Source of the DNA: Clostridia bacterium
GTDB taxonomy: Bacteria; Bacillota; Clostridia; Oscillospirales; Acutalibacteraceae
DNA: 64,000 nucleotides
Direction of reading: 5' to 3'
Assembly: GCA_017407705.1 (NCBI GenBank)
Contig: JAFQWA010000029.1
Span: 1,628-65,627, forward strand
Part shown: piece after piece, positions 9,245-49,032 of the stretch
Layout of the letters: each line of letters begins with the position of its first letter
Numbering within the stretch: the first letter of the stretch is position 1
Notes under the pieces: model-generated
What the model saw: the letters and a program-made list of their open reading frames with translations, nothing else
Databases searched by the model: none
What the model was told of the DNA's origin: nothing
Made by a program: the position numbers and the translations under genes

Positions 9245-9257
9245 TGTATCCTCCAAT

Positions 9258-17531: not shown

Positions 17532-17555
17532 ATTTATAAATATGTGTATTAACGC

Positions 17556-17789: not shown

Positions 17790-17823
17790 TTTTACTGCCT
17801 AAACTTAAGAAAGGATGATTTTA

Positions 17824-18846: not shown

Positions 18847-18864
18847 GAAAGGACGGAATGTATT

Positions 18865-32043: not shown

Positions 32044-33606
32044 TTATTTTGCTGTGATAATGTAGTCTTTCCAGGCGGATAAATATTCTTGCTCTAACTG
32101 TAAGCCATAGGTATCTATCGCCCACTGAGCGTCTTTTCCCTCTTTAACCACCTTATTTACTATATCCTCTGTTTTTATTTCAGCGTTTTGTCTTTCGGCA
32201 TAAGCAATCAAATTCACATAAGACTTATATTCATTATTGTTGAATTTAAGATTTGCCAAGCACTTCATTTCAAGTGAGTTAAGCCTTAAAATATTCCTAT
32301 ACTTTAATTGAATATCTCGATCTTTAAAGCGTGATGCCAGTCGGTAGATCTCGTTTCTTATAAACAATATCTTAGCGGCATCTGTTGCCTTTGGAGCAGG
32401 AATAAACTCAGCATATTTTATCTGCTTTTGAGTTACATATATCTGCCCTGCCTTGGGTGTGGGGAACGGTGCTACGCCTACTGTAAACTCATTGGTATCT
32501 TTGGGCGAACCAATCTGCGTAATACCCGATGCCAAAAACATTGCCAATTCGCCACTTGCAAACTTTTTAAGCAGTGTATCACGGGGCACATTCTCGTCTA
32601 ATATGTTTAAAACGGAATTTTTAGTCCAGACGGACAATGTGTTCAAAGCATTTCTTGCAGCAGTGGAGTCGATATTGGTTTTTACAGCTCCGGGGATCGC
32701 AGGAACCAAGGCTCCGCCACCGGAAATAACCATTGATGCGTAAAAATCATTGTAGTCTGTGTGGCAAGACAGACCGATCACATTGTTAGAGCTAAGCTTT
32801 TTAGCATAGCTTTCCATAACCTCCCAGGTCCACTGACGTTTCTCTGCAAGAGCGGCAGGATCTGCAAGTCCTGCTTTTTTTATCATATCCTTGTTGTATA
32901 AAATCACATAAGGCTCAAGGTCATCCTCTGCCCAAGCATACTGTCCGCCGTTAACGTTGAAAAACGTCCTTGCTTCCTGATTAAACCAAGTAAGTCTCAT
33001 ATCAACGCCCGACGTTGACATCGCCTTATTAAGATTGGTCATATAGTTTTGCCTTAAAAATCCGTAATAATTAACATCCTCGACCCTGTATATATCAGCA
33101 TCACACCTGCCGGATACTATAGCGGCTGCAACGGTTTCGGTGTAACCCTCATACATACCGCTTACAACTATATTAACGCCAAACTCTTTTTCTACCTCAA
33201 TTTCAACGTAAGCTGCAGCTTCGTAAAGTTCAGTTCCCGAAGCATAATTTCCCCAAGGGTTATGGATTTTAAGAGTATATCCCTTTAAGCCTTTGATAAA
33301 CGCCTGTGAGGGATTACCGTTTTGATCAGTGGTAAGCTTCGGTGCTGTGTGATAATGAGGATGTCCGCAAATCAGAATAAAATTACCATCATCAGATGAG
33401 GTAGTTGTTGCCACAGTGGTGGTAGAGGGAGTTGTTTGCTCGCTTGTTTGTGCAGTGGTATGATTTGTGGTGGTTGGTGTAGTGGTAGTTGTGGGTGTGG
33501 TTGTACCCTCTGCCTCATTGGTGTTTGTATCATTTATGCAGGAAGCGATTACAAAGGTAAAGCACAATGCCAAAGCAAACGCTACTATTCTTTTAGCTGT
33601 TGACAT
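32044..33606 (-). CDS. ABC transporter extracellular solute-binding lipoprotein (paralog 3, most diverged)
   Basis: Lipobox FVIASC and a Thr/Pro-rich linker. SBP family-1-like core (YNKDMIKKAGLADP ... WTW ... GELAMFL ... VAPFPTPKAG). Collinear with the two upstream paralogs. Confidence 0.85.
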   Translation of the reverse strand: MSTAKRIVAFALALCFTFVIASCINDTNTNEAEGTTTPTTTTTPTTTNHTTAQTSEQTTPSTTTVATTTSSDDGNFILICGHPHYHTAPKLTTDQNGNPSQAFIKGLKGYTLKIHNPWGNYASGTELYEAAAYVEIEVEKEFGVNIVVSGMYEGYTETVAAAIVSGRCDADIYRVEDVNYYGFLRQNYMTNLNKAMSTSGVDMRLTWFNQEARTFFNVNGGQYAWAEDDLEPYVILYNKDMIKKAGLADPAALAEKRQWTWEVMESYAKKLSSNNVIGLSCHTDYNDFYASMVISGGGALVPAIPGAVKTNIDSTAARNALNTLSVWTKNSVLNILDENVPRDTLLKKFASGELAMFLASGITQIGSPKDTNEFTVGVAPFPTPKAGQIYVTQKQIKYAEFIPAPKATDAAKILFIRNEIYRLASRFKDRDIQLKYRNILRLNSLEMKCLANLKFNNNEYKSYVNLIAYAERQNAEIKTEDIVNKVVKEGKDAQWAIDTYGLQLEQEYLSAWKDYIITAK

Positions 33607-33627
33607 AATAATTCCCCCTTTTATTTT

Positions 33628-33656
33628 AATATAACATACAAATACGTTATTTACAA
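33628..33656 (-). promoter_or_regulatory. Promoter of binding-protein paralog 3
   Basis: On the minus strand: TTGTAA (33656-33651), a 17-nt spacer, then an extended -10 TGtTATATT (hexamer at 33633-33628). Confidence 0.5.
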
Positions 33657-33726
33657 CTTTACCCTTTCACTTATTAGACGAAAGTTTTTAAAAATTCTCC
33701 CACCTGATTTTTAAAAAATTTATAAC

Positions 33727-33757
33727 AAAAACCCGTGGACTTAAAGTCCACGGGTTT
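33727..33757 (-). terminator. Rho-independent terminator after binding-protein paralog 2
   Basis: ACCCGTGGACT / AGTCCACGGGT stem with a 3-nt loop, followed on the minus strand by TTTTTG. Confidence 0.85.
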
Positions 33758-33775
33758 TAATTTATGAGTTAATCT

Positions 33776-35356
33776 TTATTTGCCAGTAATTTTCAGGCCT
33801 TTCCAGGTTGATGCATATTCCTGATCAATTACACTTGAGTAAGTGTCAATAGCAGCCTGAGGTGTTCTTGTTCCGTTAACAACCTCGTAAACTGTCCAGT
33901 CAGTACTTGCAGTAGCACCTGATTTTTCAGTCAAGGAAGTAACGTTGATAGCAGACTTAAATCCTGCTCTATCGAAAGCAATATTAGAGAAGTTAGTAAG
34001 ATCTTTGCTTCCTACGGGGAACATATCCTGATTGTTTATCTGGAACTCTCTATCCCACAAACGATAGCTTACACGGTACATCTCGTTTCTGATAAAGAGG
34101 ATCTTTGCAGCTGATGTAGCCTTAGGAGCGGGGATAAAGTCGATCCACTGGAGTTTTCTCTGAGTAACATAATCCTGACCTGCTTTAGGTGTGGGGAACG
34201 GAACGACGCCCATCTTAAATGTGGATTTGTAATTTCTGTAAGACTTATCAACTGTTCCGCCGAGGATCATAGCAAGCTCGCCCTTAGCAAACTTATTAGG
34301 AGCTTCCTGCCACATTTCTTGACCCTTCATTATGTTGAAAACAGCGTCATTCTTTGTCCAAGTTGCAAGAGTCTGCAAGCAGTTCTTAACAACAGCGGAT
34401 TTGATGTTTGACTTAGGAACTCCGTTATCAACAACTACCAATGAGCTGCCGCTGGAGATAACCATTGAAGCCAAGAAGTCAGTAACGGTAGTACCGCAGG
34501 AAAGACCCATAACTGATGCAGTAGTAAGCTTTTCGGAATAGGTTTTTAATTTATCCCAAGTCCACTGCTTTTTAGCAACCAAGTCAGCGGGATCTGTAAG
34601 ACCTGCTTTCTTGATCATATCTTTATTATAGTACAGATAGAAGGTCTGAGCAGAGTTGCTGCCCAACCAAGCATACTGACCGTTGTTAACGTTAAAGAAT
34701 TTCCTTGCATCCTGACTGTACCAAGGCTCTTTCATATCAACGCCTGAAGTGGTCATAGCTTTTGTAAGGTTAGCCATATACTTTTTGCTCAAATATGTAG
34801 CATAGTTAAAGTCCTGAACCTTGTAGATATCAGCATCAGGACGGCCTGATGTAATATTAGCAAATACTGTTTCAGCATAGCCTTCCCAGTTACCTGTCTG
34901 ATAGATCTCTACGCCAAACTCTTTTTCTACCTCAGTCTCAACGAAGGCTGCATCCTGATAAAGAGTAGTACCTGCAGCAGCGCCGGTCCAAGGATCAAAG
35001 ATCTTAAGAGTGTAGCCCTTAAGGCTCTTGATAAATGCAGCGCTTGCGTTACCGTTTTTATCGGTAGTACGTTTGATCTCATTACCGATGGTGCTGTATC
35101 CTTCAATATCTGTAACGGTTGCCACTGTAGGCATTTTTGTTGTAACAACAGTTCCCTTTGTTGTAGTCGCACCTGTTGCAACGGTTTCGTCACCGCCTGC
35201 AACTGTAGTTTCAACGTTTGCATCGCCCTGAGCTGCTGTTGTTGTAGCTGCTGTTGTTGCATCGCCACCAGTTGCGGGGTTTTTTGAGCAAGATGCAATC
35301 ACAAGAACAAAGCAAAGTGCCAGAACAAGTGCTAATGCTCTTTTCAGATAAGACAT
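33776..35356 (-). CDS. ABC transporter extracellular solute-binding lipoprotein (paralog 2)
   Basis: MSYLKRALALVLALCFVLVIASC lipobox. ATG 35356 has GGAGG upstream; the track start is 35398. Very similar to the 35534..37117 product over the full length. Confidence 0.88.
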   Translation of the reverse strand: MSYLKRALALVLALCFVLVIASCSKNPATGGDATTAATTTAAQGDANVETTVAGGDETVATGATTTKGTVVTTKMPTVATVTDIEGYSTIGNEIKRTTDKNGNASAAFIKSLKGYTLKIFDPWTGAAAGTTLYQDAAFVETEVEKEFGVEIYQTGNWEGYAETVFANITSGRPDADIYKVQDFNYATYLSKKYMANLTKAMTTSGVDMKEPWYSQDARKFFNVNNGQYAWLGSNSAQTFYLYYNKDMIKKAGLTDPADLVAKKQWTWDKLKTYSEKLTTASVMGLSCGTTVTDFLASMVISSGSSLVVVDNGVPKSNIKSAVVKNCLQTLATWTKNDAVFNIMKGQEMWQEAPNKFAKGELAMILGGTVDKSYRNYKSTFKMGVVPFPTPKAGQDYVTQRKLQWIDFIPAPKATSAAKILFIRNEMYRVSYRLWDREFQINNQDMFPVGSKDLTNFSNIAFDRAGFKSAINVTSLTEKSGATASTDWTVYEVVNGTRTPQAAIDTYSSVIDQEYASTWKGLKITGK

Positions 35357-35379
35357 AACTAATACCTCCAAAATCTGTT

Positions 35380-35398
35380 TTGTGTAAATCTTACACAA
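35380..35398. promoter_or_regulatory. Perfect 8-3-8 palindrome TTGTGTAA-atc-TTACACAA in the leader of paralog 2 (candidate operator)
   Basis: Read directly. It lies between the predicted -10 (35430-35435) and the RBS. Confidence 0.4.
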
Positions 35399-35429
35399 TA
35401 AAATAACAATGATCTGTTATTTTTATTTA

Positions 35430-35458
35430 ATTATACTATGGGACTTTATAAAATGCAA
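35430..35458 (-). promoter_or_regulatory. Promoter of binding-protein paralog 2
   Basis: On the minus strand: TTGCAT (35458-35453), a 17-nt spacer, then TATAAT (35435-35430). Confidence 0.6.
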
Positions 35459-35481
35459 TAGCAAAATGACTTTATTAAAAG

Positions 35482-35514
35482 AAAAAACCTGCCGAAAATC
35501 GGCAGGTTTTTTTT
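35482..35514 (-). terminator. Rho-independent (bidirectional) terminator after binding-protein paralog 1
   Basis: ACCTGCCGA / TCGGCAGGT stem flanked by A- and T-tracts. Confidence 0.85.
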
Positions 35515-35533
35515 GGTTATTTAAGATAAAATC

Positions 35534-37117
35534 TTATTTACCTGTGATTGTAAGACCCTTCCAAACTGACTCATACTCAGCCTCGATCATTGAGCCATAA
35601 GCGTCGATAGCAGCCTGAGGAGTTCTTGTTCCGGCAACAACCTCGCTTACAGTCCAGCTTGTACTTGCTGTAGCGTCAGATTTCTCTGTCAATGAAACGA
35701 AGTTTGTTGCAGTCTTGAAGTAAGACTTTCTGTTGTAAGTAATATCAGCAAGATCTGTCATCTCTTTACCGTTGAGCTTGAACATATCCTTGTTTCTGAT
35801 CTGGAAGTCTCTATCCCAGAAACGATAGCTTACACGATACATCTCGTTTCTGATGAAGAGGATCTTTGCAGCAGAAGTAGCTTTAGGAGCGGGGATGAAG
35901 TCCATATACTGAACTTTAGTCTGGCTAACGTAATCCTGACCTGCTTTAGGTGTGGGGAACGGAACAACGCCAACTGTGAAAGTAGCTTTCTGAGCTTTAT
36001 AAGCCTTAGCATTGTCACCGCCGAGGATCATAGCGAGCTCGCCTTTAGCAAACTTCTTGGGAGCTTCCTGCCACATTTCCTGACCCTTCATCATGTTAAC
36101 AACAGCGTCATTCTTTGTCCAAGTTGCAAGAGTCTGCAAGCAGTTCTTAACAACAGCGGATTTGATGTTTGACTTGGGTTTGCCGTTAACGATGCTTACC
36201 AATGAACCGCCACTGGAAATAACCATTGAAGCGAGGAAGTCAGCTGCAGTAGTACCGCATGAAAGACCGATAACAGAAGAACTGTTAAGTTTCTCAGCGT
36301 ATTTCTTCATCTGATCCCAAGTCCACTGTTTCTTAGCAACTAAGTCAGCGGGATCTGTAAGACCTGCTTTTTTGATCATATCCTTATTGTACATAATAAG
36401 GTAGGGGCTGCCTTCAGAACCTGCCCAAGCATACTGACCATCGTTAATGTTGAAGAATTTTCTTGCATCCTGGTTGTACCAAGGCTCTTTCATGTCAACA
36501 CCGGCTGTTCTCATAGCCTTTGTCATGTTAGCCATGTACTTTTTGCTTACGTAAGTAGCATAGTTGAAATCCTGAACCTTGTAGATATCAGCATCAGGAC
36601 GACCTGATGTGATATTGGCAAATACTGTTTCAGCATAGCCTTCCCAGTTACCTGTTTCATGGATCTCTACGCCGAACTCTTTCTCTACTTCAGTCTCAAC
36701 GTAAGCTGCAGACTGATAGATGTCTGATCCAGGTTCAGCACCCGGCCAAGGGTTATAGATCTTAAGAGTATAACCTTTAAGGCTCTTAATGAATGAAGCG
36801 CTTGCGTTACCGTTTTTGTCAGTGGTACGTTTGATCTCAGCATTGATCTTACTCATTGACGGATTATCGGTAACTGTCTCAACAACGGGGGCTTTTGTTG
36901 TTGTGCCAACTGTTCCACCCTTTGTTGTTGTTGCGCCTGTTGCAACGGTTTCACCGTTTGCAAGTGTTGTTTCGACATTTGCGTCGCCCTGAGCTGCTGT
37001 TGTTGTAGTTGTTGTGCCGTCATTGTTTCCTGCAGGCTCTTTCGGACCGCAAGCAGCAATCACAAGAACAAAACACAGTGCGAGCACAAGTGCCAAAGCT
37101 CTTTTCAGATAAGACAT
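35534..37117 (-). CDS. ABC transporter extracellular solute-binding lipoprotein (paralog 1)
   Basis: MSYLKRALALVLALCFVLVIAAC lipobox. ATG 37117 has GGAGG upstream. SBP family-1-like core. No terminator separates it from the upstream permease gene. Confidence 0.88.
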   Translation of the reverse strand: MSYLKRALALVLALCFVLVIAACGPKEPAGNNDGTTTTTTAAQGDANVETTLANGETVATGATTTKGGTVGTTTKAPVVETVTDNPSMSKINAEIKRTTDKNGNASASFIKSLKGYTLKIYNPWPGAEPGSDIYQSAAYVETEVEKEFGVEIHETGNWEGYAETVFANITSGRPDADIYKVQDFNYATYVSKKYMANMTKAMRTAGVDMKEPWYNQDARKFFNINDGQYAWAGSEGSPYLIMYNKDMIKKAGLTDPADLVAKKQWTWDQMKKYAEKLNSSSVIGLSCGTTAADFLASMVISSGGSLVSIVNGKPKSNIKSAVVKNCLQTLATWTKNDAVVNMMKGQEMWQEAPKKFAKGELAMILGGDNAKAYKAQKATFTVGVVPFPTPKAGQDYVSQTKVQYMDFIPAPKATSAAKILFIRNEMYRVSYRFWDRDFQIRNKDMFKLNGKEMTDLADITYNRKSYFKTATNFVSLTEKSDATASTSWTVSEVVAGTRTPQAAIDAYGSMIEAEYESVWKGLTITGK

Positions 37118-37180
37118 AACTAATACCTCCAAATTTTATTTATGCTAAATTTTAAAGCATACAAAGTAATAAGATTTTGG

Positions 37181-38113
37181 TTATCCAACCAAGCCGCTTC
37201 GTGAAATACTCTCAACGAAGAATCTCTGAGTGAATACATACAGCACGATAAGAGGTGCTATGATCATCATAATAGCGGCATTTTTGATCAAAGAGATGTT
37301 CAGGTCAACTGAACTTGTAATTCCTGTACCAACAGTACTGTCCAAAGAACCGATCTTTGTGGATATCAGGTTTACCTCTCTCATAAAGACGGTGGTGTAG
37401 GATGAATCCAACCACTGCCAAACAAAGGAGAACAGGAAAACTGTAACCATCATAGAAACCGCACCCGGCAACATGATAGACACAAAGGTCTTTGCGGGGC
37501 CGGCGCCGTCAACGTAGGCAGCTTCTTCAAGCTCCTTAGGCATTCCTCTGAAGAACTGACGCATAAGGAATATGTAAAGGCTACACTTAAGACCCGTACA
37601 AGTTGCTGCGAAGCACAGCATAGACAAGGGACTGTCGTTGATCTGGTCAAGTGATCTGAACATACTGTATCTGTGGGTGAACAACAGATCCGGCGGGAGC
37701 AGCAATGCAAGAATAACAAGGAAGAATAATATCTTTCCGCCTTTGAATCTGAATCTTGCCAAGCCGTAGCCTACCAAGGTTGCTGTTGCAACCTGCAGAA
37801 TAGATGTTGAGAAGGTCAGCAGGAATGTGTTTGAGAATGTCTGGAATCCACCAAGCTTCATCCAAGCAGTTTGGTAGTTGCCGAAAATGATCTGCTTAGG
37901 AATGTATTTAACTGTTGCGTCGTACATATCGTCAGAGGTCATGAAAGACAGTGACAACTGTGAGAACAACGGGTACAGTATAACAAAGCACATACCTAAG
38001 ATAAACAACCAACGGACAGCGGATACAACATACTTAAAAACATACTTTTTGATCTTAACGTTTTTCGCTCTACGTTTTATCTCATCTACTTGAATTTGAG
38101 TTAATTCGCTCAT
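37181..38113 (-). CDS. Carbohydrate ABC transporter permease (MalG/LplC-like)
   Basis: Six TM segments and the EAA loop EEAAYVDGAGPAKTFVSIMLP. Confidence 0.9.
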   Translation of the reverse strand: MSELTQIQVDEIKRRAKNVKIKKYVFKYVVSAVRWLFILGMCFVILYPLFSQLSLSFMTSDDMYDATVKYIPKQIIFGNYQTAWMKLGGFQTFSNTFLLTFSTSILQVATATLVGYGLARFRFKGGKILFFLVILALLLPPDLLFTHRYSMFRSLDQINDSPLSMLCFAATCTGLKCSLYIFLMRQFFRGMPKELEEAAYVDGAGPAKTFVSIMLPGAVSMMVTVFLFSFVWQWLDSSYTTVFMREVNLISTKIGSLDSTVGTGITSSVDLNISLIKNAAIMMIIAPLIVLYVFTQRFFVESISRSGLVG

Positions 38114-38127: not shown

Positions 38128-39084
38128 TTAATCCTGATAGAATACTACTTTAGAAAGTACTGCAAAAACTATTCCCAAAATCGCAAGGATTATCAGTGAG
38201 TAGCTTACCGCCATAGCAGCACCTACATCGTAAGTACCACCGATGATAGTCTGGTGGATGTTACGTATAACTGCGTTTACATTACTTGTAAAGGAGTCAA
38301 CAACTGTGTAAACAACTGACAACAAGATCAGCGGGCTTACCATAGGAAGACTGATCTTCCAGAAAACTTCCCATTTAGTTGCACCTTCAATGTATGACGC
38401 CTCATAAATAGAGGGAGAAATACTCTGAAGACCTGCAAGGAAGATAACGATTGAAACCGCACCCATAGTGGTGATTTCACTGATTCTGCCAACCGCACCA
38501 ATAAGGAACTCGATCAGTCTTACCGGCAGGTCCATCTGCATAAGCATCATTTCGAAAGCACCTGTGATCTCGAAGGAGCTGTCAGCGGTAGAAGCAAATC
38601 TGTCACCTGCACCAATCAGCTGTGCTGCAAGGTCGTTCTGTGTCAATGAAATGATAACACCTGATGAAATGATAACCGGCAGGAACATTACAGAACGGGC
38701 AAAACCACGTCCCATAAATTTAGTGTTAAGCACACTGGCCATAAAGAAGGAGAAGATAACAACAACCGGAACGTTAATAGCCATATCTCCCAATGAAGCC
38801 AATATCTGTTTACGGAAGTTCGGGTCAACGTTGAAAATCTCGTTGTAGTTATCTAAGCCGAAGCTTCCGTCAACACAGATAAGACCTTTACCTACTTCAG
38901 GTGAAAGCTCAACCTTGTGGAATGAATAAATAACAGAATATACCAGGGGGATCAATATGAAAATGATCGCACCGACGATAAACGGTGAAGTAAAGATGTA
39001 ACCGTACTTCTTCTGCTTGGATTCCAGTGAGCGCTTACGTCGTCTTATGTTTTTAGGGGTTAATTGATTTGTATTAGTTGCCAA
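38128..39084 (-). CDS. Sugar ABC transporter permease (MalF/LplB-like)
   Basis: EAA loop YEASYIEGATKWEVFWKISLP. TTG start with GGAAAGGTGG 8 nt upstream. Starts 3 nt after the upstream gene stop. Confidence 0.9.
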   Translation of the reverse strand: MATNTNQLTPKNIRRRKRSLESKQKKYGYIFTSPFIVGAIIFILIPLVYSVIYSFHKVELSPEVGKGLICVDGSFGLDNYNEIFNVDPNFRKQILASLGDMAINVPVVVIFSFFMASVLNTKFMGRGFARSVMFLPVIISSGVIISLTQNDLAAQLIGAGDRFASTADSSFEITGAFEMMLMQMDLPVRLIEFLIGAVGRISEITTMGAVSIVIFLAGLQSISPSIYEASYIEGATKWEVFWKISLPMVSPLILLSVVYTVVDSFTSNVNAVIRNIHQTIIGGTYDVGAAMAVSYSLIILAILGIVFAVLSKVVFYQD

Positions 39085-41724: not shown

Positions 41725-41741
41725 ATTCAATTCTCCCCCTT

Positions 41742-43967
41742 TTAAGATCGTGTGGCGACTTCGTTAATAATATCCAGTACGAAGCTATACATCTGCTGTA
41801 ACAATGCGAAGAACAAAACAGCAAGGAACACTACTATAAGCATTACAACTACTGTTATAAGCATTTCTACGATTGTCATTCCCAGTGAGTAGTCGTGGAT
41901 CCGCATATTACCCGCCACGATCAGCATCAATACCCACAGCAATGCAATAGTTACGAAAACTGTATAGAAGTCACCTTCTTCTTTAACCATAACGTTGCTG
42001 AATATCAAGGCTATGGGATAAAGAATGATGATAGGTGTCAAAGCGTAAGATGTTGCGATGTAGATGGATTTGAAGTTACCTTCACCGTTAAGCAGTGAGG
42101 TTACGCACCAGTTACATACACAGAACAACAGTGCAGGTCCGATAATCTTGAGCAACTCAAGGAATACGTTGGTTTTATCTGCCTCAGGTGAGAAGATAAA
42201 GCCTGTAAATCTTGTTTGCAGCAAGCTTACAACTGCAGCTGCCAACAAAATGGTTGTGGCGGTTGCCACGCTGCTGTGATTTTCACGGGTAAGTGCCCAA
42301 TATCCGTTAAGGGGTCGGAATATAACCTTCTTAGCATATCCCAACTTGCCCAGATATGAGTCAGACTTGATAGGAGGCAGATACTTTTTACCAAGCTTGC
42401 TGCCAACTATTATAAGAACGATCAAAATAGCTGCAACGATAATAGCTATATCAAAGTACTTACTGATGATATCTCTACGATCATACTTATAAGCCTTTGA
42501 GAAGTTAAGAGTATCTTTAGTTTCTTTAAAGTACTTCATAGCAGTCTTGTAGTCGCCGTTACGGTAAGCAACCTTACCAAGACTCTGCTTTGCTGCAGCA
42601 CTGTTGCTGTTGAATTTCAGTACCTCTTTCCAAACCTCATTCTCTTCATCGTACTTATTCTCGTGATGCAGCTTGGTAGCTTTCATAATAAGCTCGCCGT
42701 AATCAGTCAGCTTAAATACGTTGATAGTTTTAAGGTCGCTGTCCAAAACCAAGCACTGACCGTCTAACCACTCGATAGATCTGGGCATTTTTAAAGTACC
42801 TGAAATATAGCTGATGTGGTTGGGGTCACTGTTGTCGGGAGGACAACCAAACTGGAACAGGTTGATACCTTCTGAGTTGTAAAAGAATACTTTGTTACGG
42901 TTACCGTCAAGTATTGCATACATTTCGTTATCCATAGCGATAACATCGTAAAGCAGTGACGGACCTTTGTATGCACCAACCAGAACGTTGATAACGTCAC
43001 CGTAGGGCTTAGCACCGTCGGTAACTCTCTTAAGAACGTCCTTACCTTTAGCACTGAGCTTTCTCAAAGCGTCGGTAGAGGTCATAGCATACTCACTGTC
43101 GGGCAGTGAAGTAACATACAAGAAATCGTCATTATCAATGTCGATATTGTTGTACTCGGTAGGAACGAAGTTCTGCATTCCCTTTCTTTGCTCTTCGGTT
43201 GAGAACATACGCCAGATCAACTCAACGATGTTGGGAGTAACCTTGGGAGCGCCCAAGCACTGCATAAACTCGCCTTTTTTATTAAGCTCGATAACACCCA
43301 TATTGAAGCCTTTGGAAAGAATAAAGATTCTTCCTGCGCCGTCAACGGTTATCTTGGTAGGTACGAAGTAGAAGTCTTCCGGCAAAACGGGAGATTCGAT
43401 CTGACAAATGGTACGTACAAACTTACCGGTTTTATCAAACTGAACCACACGGCCTGCGATATTGTCAGACTCATCAAGATCGTGAGCTGCAAGGTATTCC
43501 AGAACTGAAGCATCACAGTTAGTGGCGGTAAGACCGTAGGTATCGCAAACGTAGAGGTTGCCCTCTCTATCTACGAATGTACCTTCGGGCTTGAAGAATG
43601 TATCTTCGATCTCGGTTTTATTTCCGTCTTTATCAACGATAACGTTAGTGAATTTATCAATAACTCTATTAAATGTAAAGTCGGAGTTTAAAACAACGAT
43701 TCTGTGGTTATATGTGTCGGATACATAAATAAGGTTATCAGGACTTAAATATATATCCTGAGGATCGTAAAGTCTGCCAACGGGGTTGCCCTCGGCATCC
43801 AGAACCTCCTCTAAGTCTATGCTTTTATCAAAGATCATAGCATCGGGAGCGGGATAATCGTTTCCGTTGCTGTCGTAAACATAAGACTGATAGGGTGAAG
43901 CCGCGCTTACAGCTGTTTGAAATATAAACAAAACGGCTATTAAACAAACAATTATTTTACGTTTCAA
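41742..43967 (-). CDS. Signal peptide, NHL-repeat-like beta-propeller, TPR-like helix pair, TM segment and a C-terminal Yip1-family multi-pass membrane domain
   Basis: Signal peptide ...QTAVSA/AS. NHL-like blades (LIYVSDTYNHRIVVLN, NLYVCDTYG, RIFILSKGFN, MYAILDGNRNKVFFYN). TPR-like GKVAYRNGDYKTAMKYFKE. C-terminal five hydrophobic segments with a Yip1-like layout. TTG start with AAGGGAGGGAG upstream. Confidence 0.65.
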   Translation of the reverse strand: MKRKIIVCLIAVLFIFQTAVSAASPYQSYVYDSNGNDYPAPDAMIFDKSIDLEEVLDAEGNPVGRLYDPQDIYLSPDNLIYVSDTYNHRIVVLNSDFTFNRVIDKFTNVIVDKDGNKTEIEDTFFKPEGTFVDREGNLYVCDTYGLTATNCDASVLEYLAAHDLDESDNIAGRVVQFDKTGKFVRTICQIESPVLPEDFYFVPTKITVDGAGRIFILSKGFNMGVIELNKKGEFMQCLGAPKVTPNIVELIWRMFSTEEQRKGMQNFVPTEYNNIDIDNDDFLYVTSLPDSEYAMTSTDALRKLSAKGKDVLKRVTDGAKPYGDVINVLVGAYKGPSLLYDVIAMDNEMYAILDGNRNKVFFYNSEGINLFQFGCPPDNSDPNHISYISGTLKMPRSIEWLDGQCLVLDSDLKTINVFKLTDYGELIMKATKLHHENKYDEENEVWKEVLKFNSNSAAAKQSLGKVAYRNGDYKTAMKYFKETKDTLNFSKAYKYDRRDIISKYFDIAIIVAAILIVLIIVGSKLGKKYLPPIKSDSYLGKLGYAKKVIFRPLNGYWALTRENHSSVATATTILLAAAVVSLLQTRFTGFIFSPEADKTNVFLELLKIIGPALLFCVCNWCVTSLLNGEGNFKSIYIATSYALTPIIILYPIALIFSNVMVKEEGDFYTVFVTIALLWVLMLIVAGNMRIHDYSLGMTIVEMLITVVVMLIVVFLAVLFFALLQQMYSFVLDIINEVATRS

Positions 43968-43984
43968 ATGGCTCCCTCCCTTTC

Positions 43985-44887
43985 TTAATCCTTAAGTCCT
44001 GACGATGCCATGGTGTCAAGAATCTGAGTTTGTGAGAAAATGAAAACTGATAACGGCGGAATGAGCATAATCAAACCAACCGCAGCACCTGCACCTGCAC
44101 GAGCAAGACCACCTGTAACGATCTGACCAAGTGCGTAGGTCAAGGGCTTTTTAGCCTCAGTGAAGATAACTGTGCTACCTGATGCACCCCACATACTCTG
44201 AACTGAGAACAGTATCATGGTCATCCAAGCGGGTTTTACCAGCGGCATTACGATACCGGTGAAAATCCTGAGCTCTGAAGCGCCGTCAATACGGGCAGCT
44301 TCCAGCAGCGCATTAGGAATAGATGATGTCATAAACTGCTTCATAAGGTAAAGACCCATTGAACCGCCTATGTAAGGAATGATCAAAGCATAATATGTAT
44401 CAACCATACCTAACTTGGACATAATAATGTAGTTGGGAATACCTGTAACAGCAGGGGTAAACATAAGTGAAAGAACGATTACTTTAAACATAACCTTTCT
44501 TCCGGGGAATTCACGTTTTTCAAGAACGTAAGCCGCCAGTGATGCAAAGATGATGTGGAAGAAGGTTGCAACAACTGTCATAAACACAGTATTGAATATG
44601 TATCTTGAGAAAGGCACCCATGACTGGCTCATCAAAACGCCGATGTTCTGGAAGTTTTCCAGAGTTGGGTTTCTAACGAAGAAACGAGGCGGGAAGATGA
44701 ACAACTCATCCAAGGGTTTAAATGCGTTACATACTGTATAAACCAGCGGCAACACCATAAAAACGCCAACTGCACAAAGGAACAGGAAGTTTGTAATATT
44801 ACCTGCTCTGGAACGTGCGGGACCGGGATTAAATTTTTTCTTGGAAACCTTAAGTTTGCTAACGTCAACTTGTCTTGTTGCTTCCAT
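43985..44887 (-). CDS. Carbohydrate ABC transporter permease (MalG-like)
   Basis: EAA loop LEAARIDGASELRIFTGIVMP. ATG 44887 (AGGTGG 9 nt upstream) lies 1 nt after the upstream stop; the track start is 44929. Confidence 0.9.
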   Translation of the reverse strand: MEATRQVDVSKLKVSKKKFNPGPARSRAGNITNFLFLCAVGVFMVLPLVYTVCNAFKPLDELFIFPPRFFVRNPTLENFQNIGVLMSQSWVPFSRYIFNTVFMTVVATFFHIIFASLAAYVLEKREFPGRKVMFKVIVLSLMFTPAVTGIPNYIIMSKLGMVDTYYALIIPYIGGSMGLYLMKQFMTSSIPNALLEAARIDGASELRIFTGIVMPLVKPAWMTMILFSVQSMWGASGSTVIFTEAKKPLTYALGQIVTGGLARAGAGAAVGLIMLIPPLSVFIFSQTQILDTMASSGLKD

Positions 44888-44888
44888 A

Positions 44889-45824
44889 TTACTGTCCCAC
44901 CTTTCCGAGTATTCTCTGGATGATCTCATTTACGCCAACCATTGTTACGAACAGCAAGGTAGCGATAGCACAAGCATAACCCATTTCAAAACGTGTTGTA
45001 CCGTAGTCACCCAAGTGGTTAAGAATAGTATGGGCAGCATAGTCGGTGCTGGGGAATCCGAAAAGTGTGGTTGTAACGTCACCTACGGTAAATGCAGATG
45101 TAATACTCATAACCGCACTAAACATCATCTGGGGTCTCATAGAAGGCAGTGTGATGAACCACAGCTCCTGCCAACGGTTTCTGATACCCTCAACGTAGCC
45201 TGCTTCATACTGTGAACGGTCAATAGTTCTGAAACCTGCAACGTTAGAAAGGAATCCGGCACCAAGGCTCATCCATACCATAACGATTACGCATACCCAG
45301 ATCATCCAGTCGGTATTGGTTAAGAACTGTATAGGCTCTGTAAGAATACCAAGGTTGATAAGTGTACCGTTGATCCAACCGTAGGTATCACCGGAGAACA
45401 TAACCTTCCAGATCATATAAGCACCACCGGAAATAGACGGTGCATACATTATAGTAACCATAATAGCTCTGACGACAGGTGACAGCTCATTGATAAACCA
45501 AGCGAACATCAAAGCAGACAAGTAACCTACAGGTCCTGTGATGATAGCTATGATCAATGTGTTCTTAACAGCTGTTAAGAATATATCGTCGTTAGCGATA
45601 AGGTTTTTGTAGTTCTCAAGACCGATAAATTTCGGTAACTCGAGAACGTTAAAATATGTAAAGCTAAGAGCGATGGAAATAAGAACCGGCAACACGGTGA
45701 AGGTAAAGAATATCAATCCGTACGGTGCTATATAGAAATAGCAATCCCAGTTCTGTTTGAGCATCTTGAATCTTAACTTTTTATCTTGCAGCTTAATAGC
45801 TTTAGATTCAGCAGTAGCTTTCAT
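44889..45824 (-). CDS. Sugar ABC transporter permease (MalF-like)
   Basis: EAA loop YEAGYVEGIRNRWQELWFITLP. RBS GGAGG. Confidence 0.9.
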   Translation of the reverse strand: MKATAESKAIKLQDKKLRFKMLKQNWDCYFYIAPYGLIFFTFTVLPVLISIALSFTYFNVLELPKFIGLENYKNLIANDDIFLTAVKNTLIIAIITGPVGYLSALMFAWFINELSPVVRAIMVTIMYAPSISGGAYMIWKVMFSGDTYGWINGTLINLGILTEPIQFLTNTDWMIWVCVIVMVWMSLGAGFLSNVAGFRTIDRSQYEAGYVEGIRNRWQELWFITLPSMRPQMMFSAVMSITSAFTVGDVTTTLFGFPSTDYAAHTILNHLGDYGTTRFEMGYACAIATLLFVTMVGVNEIIQRILGKVGQ

Positions 45825-45872: not shown

Positions 45873-48812
45873 TTACTCTTCTCTCAGCGGAAGGCCGAAT
45901 TCCTTACGCTTATTAGTGATCTCTGAATTGATGGTATTTGAGTAATCCAACAATGTATCTTTGGGGTCTTCAGCCTTATAAACAACTCGTCTGAAAGCGT
46001 TGTTGATATGACGTTGTAAGAAGTAGCCACCGGGAACCTCGGGGATAGAGTAAGATGTTTCGAGCTGTGCCTTCAAAGTAGCGATTTCATCTGCTGACCA
46101 GGGCAAACGCTCAAATGCTTCTGTATTTGCAGTTCCGTAACGTGCGGAGGGTCCGAGGATACACTCAAGCTCACTACCATACTGTGACTGTGTATCGGCT
46201 CTGGTCCACCACTCTAAGAACTTCCAAGACTGCTCAAGTTTCTTAGTGCTTGAAAGGATCAAAGCGCAGCTTGTAACCAATGTGTTAGAGCGGTCAATAG
46301 TTCCATCTTTCTGCACGGTTCCGGGGATAACTGTGAAATCCCACAGACCACGAATTTCAGGAGCTGCAACTGACAGTGCGTTATACATACCGTAGTTTCC
46401 GATACCGAGAGGCATCTCACCGGTTCTGAAACGGTTCTGGAAGTCATAATCAAGGAGCAAACCGTAGTTTACATAGAAGTTAGTCCAAGCCTTGAATGCA
46501 GTGGTTGCTGCGTCGGTATGAAGAGCTGTTGAGAAAGTATCCTCTTCATACATATTACCGCCGTTCTGACGAAGGAATGAGTAGAATGTCATAACACCTG
46601 CGCCAACGTCGTTTGTGGTAGGTACGGGCATACCGAATTCAAGGTTATTCTTATTAAGAATAGTAATGGCTGTAATGATCTCTTCCCAAGTCTGGGGAAC
46701 TTTTTCGATACCCACCTCAGAAAGAACGTCTTTACGGTAGAACATTACGTTAAAGGACTGGGTTTCGGGAAGAGCGTAAACACCTGTGTGTTTACCGTCA
46801 TTAAAGTAGTAAGGAATCATTGCTTCATTGGAGAAGCGCTTTGCAACAGTTGAGAATTTCTGACTGTCGTCCCACTTGTCCTCAAACTGAGTCAAGTCCA
46901 CAACAGCATTTCTCATAGCAAAGTTAACGGCCTCGTTCTGTCCCTGACCTAACGCTACGTCAGGACCGATACCTGCAACAATCGCTGACAGCAACGCACC
47001 CATATTAACAAGCTCAAGGTTGATTTCCTGACCTGTGGTCTTGGTGAGTGAGTCGTTGATCATAGCACGCAGTGTCTGGAACTGGTCACGACCGGTAGAA
47101 ATCCAAACTGTGATGGTTTCTTCTTTATTAGTATTTTTTGTAAGGTTACCGATAGAGTTATAGTCGATAACAAAGGATGCGATAAACTGGTTTACCTGAT
47201 ATGCCAAATCTACAAAGAAATTAGCGGTAGGCTTCTTTATCTGGCCGTCAGGCTTTGAGAATGATATGTAGTCCAGCTCAAGGGGCACGTTACCTGCTGT
47301 ATTAAGCCAGGTTCCCAATGAACCGATGTTGGTTTTGAAGTAAGAGAGGTTCTTTGCAATGTCCTGAGGCTTCTCATACATTTTCTTCAGCTGACGTGAC
47401 ATTGTTTCCAATGTTGCCAAGTCCGAACCCTTTTTCTTGGTGTATGAAAGGATACCTGCAACGATGTCGTCCAGTCTTTTTGCCTGAACGTCAAACTGCT
47501 CGATAACATCAGGCATAAGTTGTTCCAATTTATAGTCACGGTATTTATCAGGCTCGGAACCGGTAACGATAAGTATCTTTCTGTACATCTCGTTAAGGGT
47601 GGTAAGGCAATCCTCAGCATCACGGAGGAAGGGGCCCATCTGACCCTGAGTGGTTTCCATTGTAATGGTGTTTTCACCGGCTTTAAGATAAATCAGGCAA
47701 TCCTTACCGTCAGCGGTGGTGGGATTTACGATAACCCAGTTGTTATCAAACTTAAAGGGAACAGCCTCTGCCTCTGCAAAGGGGATCTCACCGTTGATGT
47801 AAAGCTTTCTGGAGGAGATCATACCCTGATACAGGTTCTTACGGGCTTTAAAGTTGATCTTATAAAGACCTGCCTTCTCTACCTTTGCAGTCCAGGTGAT
47901 AGACTGCTGAGCATACTGCCATCTTGTACCGCCGATCTCGTTGATAAGCATTTTGTAAGCTTTATAAGGAACGGTAGCAGGAGTGGAAAGGTCAGCCATA
48001 GGATAAAGAGTCTGGTCGGATTTTACAGAAGGTCTTTCGGCCTGAATGAAGATTTCTTCACCGTCGTAGATAGGATAGTTGTTAGCTTTATACTCAGCCT
48101 CAACCTCAGCATAAGTAGGTATTGTAGTAGCGGGTACCAACTTAATGGACTTAATGGTCATAGGCTCTTTTACAGAGTGAAGCTTAATGGTATTCTGACC
48201 CTCTTTGAAGTAGAACTCCAAAGGAGTAGAAACGTAACCTAAATAATCATAGAAATAGGAGGATGTCCATGTATGAAGCTCCTGCTGAGTAGGACGGATA
48301 TCGTTTCCGTATGCGTCCTTAGCAAACTCTTCGTCTGAACCGATAACGTCAATCCATACACGGTTGAAGGTAAAGTTGTTTGCTGTTTTGAAGGGAACCT
48401 CACCGTTGATCTCTATTTTTCTTTCAATAGAGATATTTTTACCTTTCTCGTTATAGTACTCCAGGAAAAGGTTATACTTTCCTTCTTTAGCGTCAAAGGT
48501 AAATTCAACAGCGTCGGTATTGCTTGTATAGATAGCAGTACCGGTAGCTCCTTCATAATTTTCTCTGAGCTCAACACCCTCGGTTTTGGAAGTGATCTTG
48601 GAAGCATCGATCAAAACCTCGGTTGTTCCACGGGGAATATCCTTATATTTATCAAGGTAATCCTGATAACTGATATCCTCCTGGTAATCGCCGACATAGA
48701 TAGCTGTGTCTGAATTACCGGTGTCAGCAGCGGGGGTTTCTGCGGATGCTACTACTACCAGCATAGACATTAACATCAAGACGGTCAATAATGCTGATAT
48801 AATTCTCTTCAT
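45873..48812 (-). CDS. Very large (979 aa) extracellular solute-binding protein with two N-terminal CBM-like modules
   Basis: Signal peptide MKRIISALLTVLMLMSMLVVVASA without a lipobox Cys. Two related modules (GKYNLFLEYYNEKGKNISIERKIEINGEVPFKTANNFTFNRVW and GLYKINFKARKNLYQGMISSRKLYINGEIPFAEAEAVPFKFDNNW). The C-terminal roughly 430 aa are SBP family-1-like (ITVWISTGRDQ ... FYRKDVLSEVGIEKVPQTWEE). Confidence 0.8.
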   Translation of the reverse strand: MKRIISALLTVLMLMSMLVVVASAETPAADTGNSDTAIYVGDYQEDISYQDYLDKYKDIPRGTTEVLIDASKITSKTEGVELRENYEGATGTAIYTSNTDAVEFTFDAKEGKYNLFLEYYNEKGKNISIERKIEINGEVPFKTANNFTFNRVWIDVIGSDEEFAKDAYGNDIRPTQQELHTWTSSYFYDYLGYVSTPLEFYFKEGQNTIKLHSVKEPMTIKSIKLVPATTIPTYAEVEAEYKANNYPIYDGEEIFIQAERPSVKSDQTLYPMADLSTPATVPYKAYKMLINEIGGTRWQYAQQSITWTAKVEKAGLYKINFKARKNLYQGMISSRKLYINGEIPFAEAEAVPFKFDNNWVIVNPTTADGKDCLIYLKAGENTITMETTQGQMGPFLRDAEDCLTTLNEMYRKILIVTGSEPDKYRDYKLEQLMPDVIEQFDVQAKRLDDIVAGILSYTKKKGSDLATLETMSRQLKKMYEKPQDIAKNLSYFKTNIGSLGTWLNTAGNVPLELDYISFSKPDGQIKKPTANFFVDLAYQVNQFIASFVIDYNSIGNLTKNTNKEETITVWISTGRDQFQTLRAMINDSLTKTTGQEINLELVNMGALLSAIVAGIGPDVALGQGQNEAVNFAMRNAVVDLTQFEDKWDDSQKFSTVAKRFSNEAMIPYYFNDGKHTGVYALPETQSFNVMFYRKDVLSEVGIEKVPQTWEEIITAITILNKNNLEFGMPVPTTNDVGAGVMTFYSFLRQNGGNMYEEDTFSTALHTDAATTAFKAWTNFYVNYGLLLDYDFQNRFRTGEMPLGIGNYGMYNALSVAAPEIRGLWDFTVIPGTVQKDGTIDRSNTLVTSCALILSSTKKLEQSWKFLEWWTRADTQSQYGSELECILGPSARYGTANTEAFERLPWSADEIATLKAQLETSYSIPEVPGGYFLQRHINNAFRRVVYKAEDPKDTLLDYSNTINSEITNKRKEFGLPLREE

Positions 48813-49003: not shown

Positions 49004-49032
49004 AGCATAGATAATATCGTTTTTCTTGTCAA
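49004..49032 (-). promoter_or_regulatory. Candidate promoter of the 17-kb transport locus
   Basis: On the minus strand: TTGACA (49032-49027), a 17-nt spacer, then TATGCT (49009-49004). This implies a leader of roughly 185 nt. Confidence 0.35.

Follow-up and report, generated by a model that had tools for sequence, protein, structure and literature searches.

What does a protein do that joins an extracytoplasmic propeller to a Yip1 domain and is encoded between two pairs of importer permeases? The import of plant and host glycans by Gram-positive bacteria of gut and soil is mainly seen as simple: a binding protein (SBP), two permeases and a shared ATPase. At the locus described here, which lies in a 64-kb stretch of clostridial DNA (the window), fixed extras travel with two importers: a propeller/TPR-Yip1 protein, a DUF5696 protein that is shaped like a glycosidase, and a giant SBP. 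A reading of the window made without database searches (the sequence-only reading) had proposed that the propeller/Yip1 protein is an accessory subunit of the translocators that presents or captures a polymeric ligand. We are highly confident of the topology of this protein and of its membership in a conserved cassette; what it does there is a matter of more tentative argument.

Architecture of the NHL/Yip1 protein

The features of the locus are collected in Table 1. The TTG start codon is at 43967-43965 and is preceded by AAGGGAGGGAG at 43982-43972, just as the sequence-only reading had it, and the permease gene upstream (A2) stops at 43985. In the alignment, the resulting N-terminus lines up with the MKK/MKR starts of 20 homologues. 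The peptides that had been quoted from the product are all found in it: LIYVSDTYNHRIVVLN at residues 78-93, NLYVCDTYG at 137-145, RIFILSKGFN at 213-222, MYAILDGNRNKVFFYN at 349-364, and GKVAYRNGDYKTAMKYFKE at 464-482.

Table 1. Features of the locus, from upstream to downstream (positions in the 64-kb window)
Feature	Positions	Strand	Basis
Best promoter-like site upstream of the cassette, TTGACA-17-TATGCT	49004..49032	minus	consensus scan only
Giant SBP, 979 aa; SBP core at residues 576-875; no lipobox	45873..48812	minus	Pfam SBP_bac_1; best PDB relative Lin1841, 5ysb
Permease A1 (BPD_transp_1)	44889..45824	minus	Pfam; synteny
Permease A2 (BPD_transp_1), 41-nt overlap with A1	43985..44929	minus	Pfam; synteny
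RBS, AAGGGAGGGAG	43972..43982	minus	read from sequence; GGAGG core ends 7 nt before TTG
NHL/Yip1 gene, 741 aa, TTG start	41742..43967	minus	ORF and translation
Signal peptide, residues 1-22 (MKRKIIVCLIAVLFIFQTAVSA / AS), SPase-I type, without lipobox	43902..43967	minus	hydrophobic stretch 1-26; AxA motif kept in homologues
Six-bladed NHL beta-propeller, about residues 26-420	42708..43892	minus	Pfam NHL, PDB profile matches, AlphaFold2 strands, Foldseek, conservation
Two TPR-like helical hairpins between propeller and membrane, about residues 421-484	42516..42707	minus	AlphaFold2 helices 422-435, 439-452, 457-469, 473-482
Juxtamembrane helix and TM1, residues 485-529, hydrophobic core about 505-527	42381..42515	minus	hydropathy; AlphaFold2 continuous helix 486-529
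K/R-rich cytoplasmic linker, residues 530-566	42270..42380	minus	8 K/R in residues 527-570; gene split point in other genomes
Five-helix Yip1 bundle, residues 567-741	41745..42269	minus	Pfam Yip1; AlphaFold2 helices 567-587, 601-626, 632-659, 662-691, 695-740
DUF5696 lipoprotein, 880 aa, begins 11 nt past the NHL/Yip1 stop codon	39088..41730	minus	Pfam DUF5696 E=4.5e-146; lipobox LTSC
Permease B1 (BPD_transp_1)	38128..39084	minus	Pfam; synteny
Permease B2 (BPD_transp_1)	37181..38113	minus	Pfam; synteny
Three tandem ordinary lipoprotein SBP genes, downstream of pair B	32044..37132 (35534-37132, 33776-35398, 32044-33606)	minus	lipoboxes; Pfam SBP_bac_1 for the first
First strong terminator-like hairpin past the cassette, behind the first ordinary SBP gene	35482..35512	minus	consensus scan

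The product is a polytopic membrane protein with an NHL propeller, two TPR-like hairpins, a TM helix, a cytoplasmic linker and a Yip1 bundle. The four-part architecture proposed earlier is borne out: the NHL and Yip1 profile searches that had been suggested as a check both gave significant matches, above the Pfam cut-offs, and the AlphaFold2 model, hydropathy and Foldseek agree. Hydropathy gives the order signal peptide, TM1, a linker with 8 K/R, and five TM segments, and the signal peptide is predicted to be cleaved after MKRKIIVCLIAVLFIFQTAVSA. More than 265 full-length homologues conserve all three parts.

The ectodomain is a six-bladed NHL propeller by both repeat profile and fold. Pfam's NHL model matches the protein itself (E=1.1e-10, 41.5 bits, cut-off 20), and a profile of the family matches the propeller of the PknD sensor in the PDB (1rwi, 1e-31) as well as TRIM71 and the "Pizza" NHL propellers (Pizza6). 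The AlphaFold2 model (mean pLDDT 82.6, pTM 0.71) has six four-stranded blades by our reading of its strand list, and Foldseek matches it to the six-bladed NHL domains of TRIM71, Brat and Thin (E=2e-14, target TM-score 0.74-0.78). The propeller carries two insertions: a family-specific one of two helices (residues 247-265), which is followed by a conserved FVPTEYNN motif, and a clade-specific one in blade 2 (residues 143-172). Several acidic residues in the propeller are invariant in the alignment (D142, D209, E271, D341 and D354). Pfam detected no carbohydrate-binding family in the ectodomain.

We describe residues 421-484 as TPR-like, with two hairpins. At the family level, profile positions 384-438 match consensus TPR proteins with E down to 1e-40, and matches to TPR_16, TPR_1 and TPR_2 are on record in Pfam for homologues; in this protein the TPR models stay below threshold, and the one hint is a sub-threshold match to ARM_TT21_C (19.7 vs 35).

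The C-terminal part matches nearly the full length of Pfam's Yip1 profile (PF04893, E=8.8e-10, 39.2 bits, cut-off 28.6; profile positions 2-172 of 173 at residues 547-715), and it has the five TM helices of the family after a cytoplasmic N-terminal stretch, as judged by AlphaFold2 helices and hydropathy. The orientation of these helices is predicted by the positive-inside rule. Two motifs are conserved, NWC(V/L)T(S/T)L..GEG and H(D/Q)Y(S/T); L625, G628, G630, H691 and Y693 are invariant in the alignment, and N619 and W620 nearly so. The family profile retrieved no relative from the PDB by sequence for the Yip1 part. Foldseek on the full model was dominated by the propeller, so this comparison of structures concerns the ectodomain.

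A gene that is fused or split

A scan of genomes with the single protein as query retrieved no relative, and relatives were instead recovered by an alignment-based scan. In many of them the protein is encoded by two genes: one for the propeller, the TPR hairpins and TM1, and, abutting it, a gene for a 207-aa Yip1 protein. Across 167 loci, 103 are fused and 64 are split. Each half is recognized by Pfam in the split form (NHL 63.7 bits; Yip1 60.8 bits for the 207-aa homologue), the stand-alone Yip1 homologues start without a signal peptide, and the two ORFs abut or overlap with the junction in the linker (loci L019, L025 and L085-L087). One fused ORF, from Paenibacillus, was confirmed directly. 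We rejected sequencing errors as the source of the split ORFs: dozens of independent genomes share the junction, and the start and stop codons abut or overlap at it.

On the tree the state changes at least four times, and fusion or fission has thus occurred at least that often. When adjacent genes fuse repeatedly, this is a classic sign of parts that function together as a unit. Furthermore, the NHL part is directly upstream of Yip1 in 167/167 loci, from Clostridia and Bacilli. The sequence-only reading had described the protein as a fusion to a normally stand-alone Yip1 protein. The fusion is real, but the 207-aa Yip1 proteins of this subfamily do not stand alone: they trail an NHL-TPR-TM gene in every sampled locus, so what has been fused is a pair of obligate partners. 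The gene in the window is the fused form of this NHL-TPR-TM1 and Yip1 gene pair.

A conserved cassette with two permease pairs

Pfam places a pair of BPD_transp_1 permeases on either side of the NHL/Yip1 gene, in keeping with the position claimed for it between two importer permease pairs. The canonical order is giant SBP, permeases A1 and A2 (pair A), NHL/Yip1, DUF5696, and permeases B1 and B2 (pair B). In an early set from the first genome scan and contig look-ups, this order was kept, wherever the flank allows, in 84/84 loci. All 167 sampled loci fit the cassette, and 106 of them are complete and canonical with the giant SBP first; nearly all of the others run into a contig end, while five have the two halves permuted and a few are without the giant-SBP half. 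This reduced form (L129 and L134) consists of NHL/Yip1, DUF5696, pair B and SBPs, and this is the minimal cassette. The DUF5696 gene always adjoins NHL/Yip1 on its downstream side. Ordinary SBP genes usually come behind pair B, one or two of them in other loci.

The gene junctions are tight and without an internal terminator, which we counted in favor of an operon: the consensus scan found no hairpin comparable to the downstream one between 48812 and 35534. By Pfam on the neighbors, this is a CUT1-type locus, with SBP_bac_1 and two BPD_transp_1 proteins. A search of Pfam matches and ORFs found no ABC_tran gene between 32044 and 49032. In CUT1 systems a shared ATPase is encoded elsewhere, and by analogy the importers of the cassette probably use such an ATPase. 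The regulators found at these loci are common AraC- or LacI-type proteins with genes of their own.

Two scans of species-representative genomes gave at least 569 matching stretches each. The carriers belong to the Oscillospiraceae, the Lachnospiraceae (Butyrivibrio, including sp. MC2013, and Roseburia), Paenibacillus and the Bacillaceae, and several copies per genome, beside different CAZymes, are common. Cultured carriers include Alkalihalobacillus trypoxylicola, Neobacillus vireti, several Paenibacillus and Caldicoprobacter algeriensis. The locus is also present in gut-metagenome runs, all typed as DNA or unclassified and none labelled as RNA.

Our literature searches found no paper on DUF5696 by name, and none that describes a Yip1/NHL/SBP/GH129 cassette in Firmicutes or ties this architecture to a function; an already described function for it is what the sequence-only reading had named as counting against its proposal. 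The core of the cassette (two permease pairs, giant SBP, NHL/Yip1 and DUF5696) is thus, as far as we found, described in no paper.

DUF5696 and the giant binding protein

DUF5696 is, by its model, a GH129/GH101-like glycosidase fold. A profile of the family matches two GH129 structures in the PDB (5opq, 6e-10; 5wzn, 2.5e-7), and Foldseek matches the AlphaFold2 model (pLDDT 86.3) to the same two (E=7e-27 and E=2e-23) with a target TM-score of about 0.70. D310, D594, D740 and E776 are conserved carboxylates; the HMMER alignments to GH129 end before the catalytic region. The sequence-only reading drew no link between the NHL/Yip1 protein and the DUF5696 gene just downstream.

In the giant SBP, about 550 N-terminal residues precede the SBP core. 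This N-terminal half has no match in the PDB even at E=10, and Pfam gives just a sub-threshold hint of CBM_35 (E=0.006). We do not claim carbohydrate-binding modules there.

Both proteins mostly lack an anchor of their own. An SPase-I signal peptide with neither a lipobox nor a C-terminal TM segment was seen in 58/80 DUF5696 and 55/65 giant-SBP orthologues, by our own heuristics for start codons and for signal-peptide and lipobox motifs. We also considered a C-terminal TM anchor and rejected it, since no orthologue of either protein has one. With neither a lipid nor a TM anchor in most lineages, DUF5696 and the giant SBP would need a protein dock. The window's own clade differs: its DUF5696 protein is a lipoprotein (lipobox LTSC) and needs no dock there for retention.

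A tentative role as a docking subunit

The explanation that we favor, with a little less confidence than even odds would express, is that the NHL/Yip1 protein belongs to a glycan-uptake machine as a scaffold or accessory subunit without catalytic activity. Its Yip1 bundle would pack onto the transmembrane domains of the permeases, by analogy to YknW and the YknXYZ ABC complex. The TPR-like hairpins and the propeller would keep DUF5696, and perhaps the giant SBP as well, next to the translocons at the membrane, and the released products would then be within reach of the SBPs and permeases for uptake. The docking mechanism itself we put forward as a tentative proposal. What the ectodomain holds is more likely to be DUF5696 than a polymeric ligand.

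The general idea of an accessory subunit of the translocators, which came from the sequence-only reading, fits the data, in that the protein is an invariant member of the cassette in all sampled loci and is encoded by two abutting genes in 64 of them. The precedent that it cited is also confirmed: in B. subtilis, YknW is a Yip1-family protein that modulates the assembly of the YknXYZ ABC complex (Yamada et al. 2012, as cited in PMC4887032 and PMC4338810). The analogy is loose, since YknW serves a MacB-type exporter and its membrane-fusion protein rather than type I importers.

In a mirror-tree analysis, the partial correlations of the NHL part were highest with DUF5696 (0.32) and permease B1 (0.27), as compared to 0.43, 0.23 and 0.22 for known partners (B1 with B2, A1 with A2, and the giant SBP with A1), but these effects are small and confounded by shared history, so we treat them as exploratory only. 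The Yip1 part tracks permease A2 (0.26) and not pair B, which counts against docking as we propose it. The propeller, with its FVPTEYNN insertion, is strongly conserved; a ligand-binding or catalytic site would explain this equally well, which also counts against docking.

Other possible roles for the ectodomain

The ectodomain might instead be a lectin-like surface receptor that captures a glycan polymer and delivers it to DUF5696, to the SBPs and to the permeases, in line with the ligand capture that the sequence-only reading suggested. The propeller is large, conserved and extracytoplasmic and has conserved surface motifs; the variable CAZymes that flank it and the multiple copies in some genomes are what one would expect of substrate-specific receptors; and the ectodomain diverges fast (mean distance 1.23 vs 0.62-0.63 for pair A). 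We nevertheless consider this role unlikely. The absence of any Pfam carbohydrate-binding family from the ectodomain speaks against it, as do the nearest solved NHL domains, which are the PknD sensor and the RNA-binding TRIM-NHL proteins and Brat rather than lectins, and the giant SBP, with its large extra N-terminal region, and the GH129-fold protein are more obvious glycan binders.

An enzymatic propeller is more improbable still. In this scenario it would act as a lyase, lactonase or esterase, like SGL/SMP-30, Vgb or PAL, before import, with Yip1 as a mere anchor. Homologues and the split form do have weak matches to SGL (PF08450), but these are marginal (26.5 bits vs a cut-off of 26.3 in one homologue), and the protein in the window has none. 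Virginiamycin B lyase and PAL are among the lower-ranked Foldseek matches. As for the invariant Asp and Glu residues, which might be catalytic, most conserved Asp are at the canonical NHL repeat position and so are probably structural. Moreover, a mere anchor needs neither a five-helix bundle with invariant motifs nor a separate Yip1 gene.

It is similarly doubtful that the ectodomain senses the substrate or the loaded partners, as the NHL sensor of PknD presumably does, and regulates transport via intramembrane contacts between Yip1 and the permeases. Among natural bacterial NHL domains the extracellular sensor of PknD comes closest, and in the predicted topology the conserved GEG and HDY motifs of the Yip1 bundle face the cytoplasm. 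The protein has, however, no cytoplasmic output domain, just a linker of about 40 residues, and regulation at these loci is encoded separately, by AraC and LacI types. Finally, we give little credence to a factor that helps the permease pairs to insert or assemble, or large exoproteins to be exported, and is not a stable subunit: YknW does influence how its partners oligomerize and assemble, and the gene is central, between the two permease pairs, but a scaffold fits the present data alike and a transient helper would need no large conserved ectodomain.

Implications

Taken one step further, the docking subunit leads to a broader proposal, which we regard as speculative and rather unlikely as a whole: that the cassette encodes an unrecognized multi-subunit glycan-import machine of monoderms, a counterpart of the Sus system of Bacteroidota. 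The NHL-TPR/Yip1 protein would be its membrane hub, coupling two ABC translocons via Yip1 and holding the GH129-fold protein and the giant anchor-less SBP via its ectodomain. If the hub reading were true, it would give the first defined role of a bacterial Yip1 domain in an importer. If the parts do form one machine, then the model of glycan foraging by Firmicutes would change, DUF5696 would gain a function, and there would be a tractable bacterial system for Yip1 domains. To our knowledge, the molecular role of Yip1 domains is unclear even in eukaryotes. Because cultured carriers exist, the question is directly testable.

Comparison with known systems

Like the C-terminal domain of the NHL/Yip1 protein, YknW belongs to Pfam's Yip1 family, by which we compare the two, and it is likewise a bacterial polytopic protein encoded in an ABC-transporter operon, where it acts as an accessory subunit. 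However, YknW is small, has no ectodomain, and has a MacB-type exporter and a membrane-fusion protein as its partners. The protein described here always has an NHL-TPR ectodomain, whether fused or as the product of the upstream gene, and it is found together with BPD_transp_1 sugar importers of type I and with a GH129-fold protein. By Pfam, the cassette contains importer permeases and SBPs and neither a membrane-fusion protein nor an FtsX-type permease.

For the ectodomain, the closest parallel is PknD of M. tuberculosis (1rwi), whose six-bladed NHL propeller is also extracytoplasmic and tethered by a TM helix; TRIM71 and Brat share the six-bladed NHL fold. The protein described here has no kinase or other cytoplasmic output domain, and it has in addition the TPR-like hairpins, the two-helix insertion with FVPTEYNN, and the Yip1 bundle. 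DUF5696 shares its multi-domain fold with GH129 enzymes (ZgGH129/DagB, 5opq; NagBb, 5wzn) at only about 10-11% identity, and the alignment leaves the catalytic equivalence of the conserved carboxylates unassigned.

At the level of the locus, the closest parallel is offered by Gram-positive polysaccharide utilization loci (gpPULs) built on CUT1 importers, for example in Roseburia and Eubacterium rectale. For a gpPUL, by definition, a transporter, a regulator and CAZymes suffice. These loci resemble the cassette in having an SBP with two BPD_transp_1 permeases, no ATPase gene, CAZymes, and AraC or LacI regulators, and the carriers of the cassette are gut and soil fiber degraders. What sets the cassette apart from gpPULs is its fixed core of two permease pairs, the giant SBP, the NHL/Yip1 protein and DUF5696.

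The cassette protein and its gene

The open reading frame proposed by the sequence-only reading exists, on the minus strand, and the translation contains all of the peptides that had been quoted from it. The proposed TTG start and ribosome binding site are also borne out: the GGAGG core of AAGGGAGGGAG ends 7 nt upstream of the TTG. The permease gene on the 5' side has its stop at 43985, and the aligned start position is common to 20 homologues.

Both of the domains that had been suggested exceed their Pfam cut-offs, with 41.5 bits for NHL (cut-off 20) and 39.2 bits for Yip1 (cut-off 28.6; residues 547-715 align to positions 2-172 of 173). The protein belongs to both families, and it is TPR-like at the family level. 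A family profile built from 21 members matched the PknD sensor propeller (1rwi, 1e-31), TRIM71, and designed "Pizza" NHL propellers in the PDB; its helical part matched consensus TPR proteins, and its Yip1 part matched no solved structure in this comparison. An AlphaFold2 model from the same alignment (pLDDT 82.6, pTM 0.71) has, by our reading of its strand list, six blades of four strands, followed by four helices (422-482), then one uninterrupted helix (486-529), and finally five long ones (567-740). In Foldseek, the ectodomain fell among NHL domains with six blades (E = 2e-14, target TM-score 0.74-0.78). Blade 2 carries an insertion of about 30 residues (143-172, with a short helix at 153-161) that is found only in the closest clade.

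The hydropathy profile consists of a signal peptide, TM1 (about 505-527), a linker with 8 lysines or arginines, and five more transmembrane segments. The architecture is NHL-TPR-TM1-Yip1, and the predicted topology places the propeller and TPR outside, the linker inside, and the C-terminus outside. This prediction is supported by the split genes described below, because the split falls in the basic linker and the stand-alone Yip1 protein lacks a signal peptide. There are over 265 full-length homologues, with identities down to 30%, and their annotations go no further than "hypothetical," "YIP1 family," or "TPR repeat protein."

Coordinates of features in the window and in homologous loci (L numbers) from other genomes or metagenomes
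Feature	Position	Strand	Details
NHL-TPR-Yip1 gene	41742-43967	minus	741 aa; ORF and translation
Its start codon	43967-43965	minus	TTG
Its ribosome binding site	43982-43972	minus	AAGGGAGGGAG
Blade 2 insertion	43452-43541	minus	residues 143-172
Giant SBP	45873-48812	minus	979 aa; SBP core confined to residues 576-875; lacks a lipobox
Permease A1	44889-45824	minus	BPD_transp_1
Permease A2	43985-44929	minus	BPD_transp_1
DUF5696 lipoprotein	39088-41730	minus	880 aa; Pfam E = 4.5e-146
Permease B1	38128-39084	minus	BPD_transp_1
Permease B2	37181-38113	minus	BPD_transp_1
Three ordinary lipoprotein SBPs	32044-37132	minus	tandem paralogues, 3' of permease pair B
Terminator	35482-35512		bidirectional; 3' of first ordinary SBP gene, before the second
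URO-D-like genes	29570-30697, 30713-31693, 12717-13742
Apiosidase-like gene	3782-5095		GH140-type
HTH_3/ADP-ribosylglycohydrolase gene	433-2022		529 aa
L003 giant SBP gene	5143-8065		two overlapping ORFs
L085 DUF624/ABC-2 genes	17942-20627
L086 DUF624/ABC-2 genes	17029-20627
L129 reduced cassette	6408-13298		one or two ordinary SBP genes at end
L134 reduced cassette	6453-13372		one or two ordinary SBP genes at end
L134 accompanying genes	4861-5895, 3449-4753, 14875-16179		URO-D-family and GH140-type apiosidase; L134 also has a pectic acid lyase gene

Fused and split genes

In four loci (L018, L019, L021, and L025), the ORF call ends at 502 amino acids. Direct reading of L019 and L025 gave a 502-aa ORF (signal peptide, NHL, TPR, TM1, and a short basic tail) and then a 207-aa Yip1 ORF from the very next base. 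The same cassette contains an overlapping or abutting pair of these genes in a MAG labelled Atribacteria as well as in Alkalihalobacillus trypoxylicola and Neobacillus vireti, both of them cultured Bacilli. Against Pfam, the split halves outscore the fused protein, with 63.7 bits for NHL and 60.8 bits for Yip1. For the stand-alone Yip1 there are 1371 homologues, each around 207 aa long.

Across the 167 sampled loci, 103 are fused and 64 are split, and the NHL part lies directly upstream of Yip1 in every one, so NHL-TPR-TM1 is obligately paired with Yip1. A tree built from the concatenated parts requires at least 4 changes of state. Both states occur within each of Paenibacillaceae, Oscillospiraceae, and Lachnospiraceae, and one Paenibacillus fused ORF was confirmed by direct reading. 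The recurrent changes imply that these two obligate partners became fused several times independently, our protein being one such case. At the genomic level, this is strong evidence for the ectodomain-TM protein and the Yip1 bundle working as one unit.

A conserved cassette

As the sequence-only reading noted, the gene lies between two importer permease pairs. The cassette genes are all on one strand with tiny gaps or overlaps; the best promoter-like site is 5' of the giant SBP gene, and the first strong terminator-like hairpin follows the first ordinary SBP gene. Our ORF and Pfam survey of the neighbors in the window found no ATPase gene within the cassette. The N-terminal ~550 residues of the giant SBP have no significant Pfam or PDB match, just a CBM_35 hint (E = 0.006).

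When species-representative genomes were scanned with an alignment, at least 572 stretches proved to encode a relative, and a second scan, seeded by stand-alone Yip1 proteins, found at least 569 more. Sources in the second scan include Paenibacillus, Alkalihalobacillus, Perspicuibacillus, Halalkalibacter, Fundicoccus, Butyrivibrio, Roseburia, Anaerotaenia, Mobilitalea, Herbinix, Halanaerobiales, Peptococcaceae, and one Spirochaetaceae MAG; several genomes had more than one stretch. The order giant SBP, pA1, pA2, NHL/Yip1, DUF5696, pB1, pB2 is kept in 84 of 84 loci, as far as the contig extends. The cassette is complete and canonical in 106 of 167 loci, and nearly all of the others are truncated by contig ends. 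It is very probable that our protein belongs to this cassette. In L003, a metagenome contig, the giant SBP gene is broken into two overlapping ORFs, probably by an assembly or sequencing frameshift; L004, which is nearly identical, has an unbroken 972-aa version.

The halves are permuted in 5 of the 167 loci (L100, L108, L135, L136, and L137), where NHL/Yip1-DUF5696-pB1-pB2 precedes giant SBP-pA1, which implies that the cassette acts as two modules able to swap places. In L129 and L134, the giant SBP and permease pair A are missing, which leaves the fused NHL/Yip1, DUF5696, pB1, pB2, and ordinary SBP(s). These reduced cassettes imply that NHL/Yip1 is tied most tightly to DUF5696 and pair B. 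The MAG Bacillota AS08sgBPME_46 has several copies of the reduced form. URO-D-family and GH140-type apiosidase genes accompany the cassette both in the window and in the unrelated MAG that contains L134.

In an exploratory analysis of 99 non-redundant complete cassettes, we computed partial correlations with the shared signal removed. Known partners gave 0.43 (pB1-pB2), 0.23 (pA1-pA2), and 0.22 (giant SBP-pA1); NHL-DUF5696, NHL-pB1, Yip1-pA2, and Yip1-DUF5696 gave 0.32, 0.27, 0.26, and 0.21. This pattern is weak evidence, but it agrees with the minimal cassette of NHL/Yip1, DUF5696, and pair B.

Anchoring and a possible mechanism

The DUF5696 profile matches GH129 enzymes in the PDB (5opq, 6e-10; 8rzk, 5e-10; 5wzn, 2.5e-7). 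With Foldseek, its AlphaFold2 model (pLDDT 86.3, pTM 0.84) matches ZgGH129 (E = 7e-27, target TM-score 0.70), NagBb (2e-23), and then GH101, GH31, and GH36. Carboxylates D310, D594, D740, and E776 are conserved. Both this GH129-fold protein and the permease pair of a type I importer are invariable neighbors of NHL/Yip1.

In a monoderm cell, secreted proteins without an anchor would drift off unless they are held. Judged by heuristics of our own for start codons and lipoboxes, an ordinary signal peptide with no lipobox is present in 58 of 80 DUF5696 orthologues and in 55 of 65 giant-SBP orthologues, and none of those checked has a C-terminal transmembrane helix. Of the cassette's surface domains, only the NHL-TPR ectodomain is both invariant and tethered to the membrane. 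Retention alone is not a sufficient explanation, however, because DUF5696 does have a lipobox in the window's own clade.

We tentatively propose that the NHL/Yip1 protein is a non-catalytic scaffold: the Yip1 bundle would touch the permease transmembrane domains, and the TPR and propeller would dock DUF5696, perhaps with the giant SBP too, above the translocons. It is also possible that the propeller itself captures glycan directly, as the sequence-only reading suggested, or that it is catalytic. The protein might instead be a sensor or gate, or a transient assembly factor. There is a modest chance that this scaffold would be the hub of an import machine that is truly new and made of multiple subunits.

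Flanking genes and substrate

The flanking genes vary from locus to locus: GH38, cellulase-like, and LacI (L001); pectate-lyase-like, GH32, and GH43 (L003); GH43 (L085); a BNR protein (L086); acetyltransferase and amidohydrolase (L087); and pectic acid lyase, URO-D-like, and GH140-type apiosidase (L134). Beside the window's cassette are an AraC regulator and two URO-D-like genes, with GH140-type apiosidase, GH9, and GH38 genes further off. There are hints in the gene content of a pectin or rhamnogalacturonan-II-type substrate, and of a non-haem role for the nearby URO-D-like proteins. The locus is present in gut metagenomes, bovine and sheep among them.

In two Bacilli (L085 and L086), genes for a DUF624 membrane protein, an ABC-2-type exporter, and an ABC_transp_aux (GldG-like) protein sit after the cassette and an ordinary SBP gene, and in L085 after GH43 too. 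Elsewhere in the window, an N-terminal HTH_3 DNA-binding domain is fused to an ADP-ribosylglycohydrolase domain.

Comparison with known systems

In our literature search, no paper named DUF5696 and none connected sugar importers with Yip1 and NHL. The closest concept at the system level is the Gram-positive polysaccharide utilisation locus, whose definition reportedly includes none of the cassette's fixed extra parts. The closest functional precedent is YknW, the Yip1-family accessory subunit of YknXYZ in Bacillus subtilis, but YknW has no ectodomain and its partner transporter is of another class. We rate the NHL/Yip1 protein as a putative ABC-transporter accessory subunit, with domains from known families, inside a Gram-positive glycan-uptake locus.
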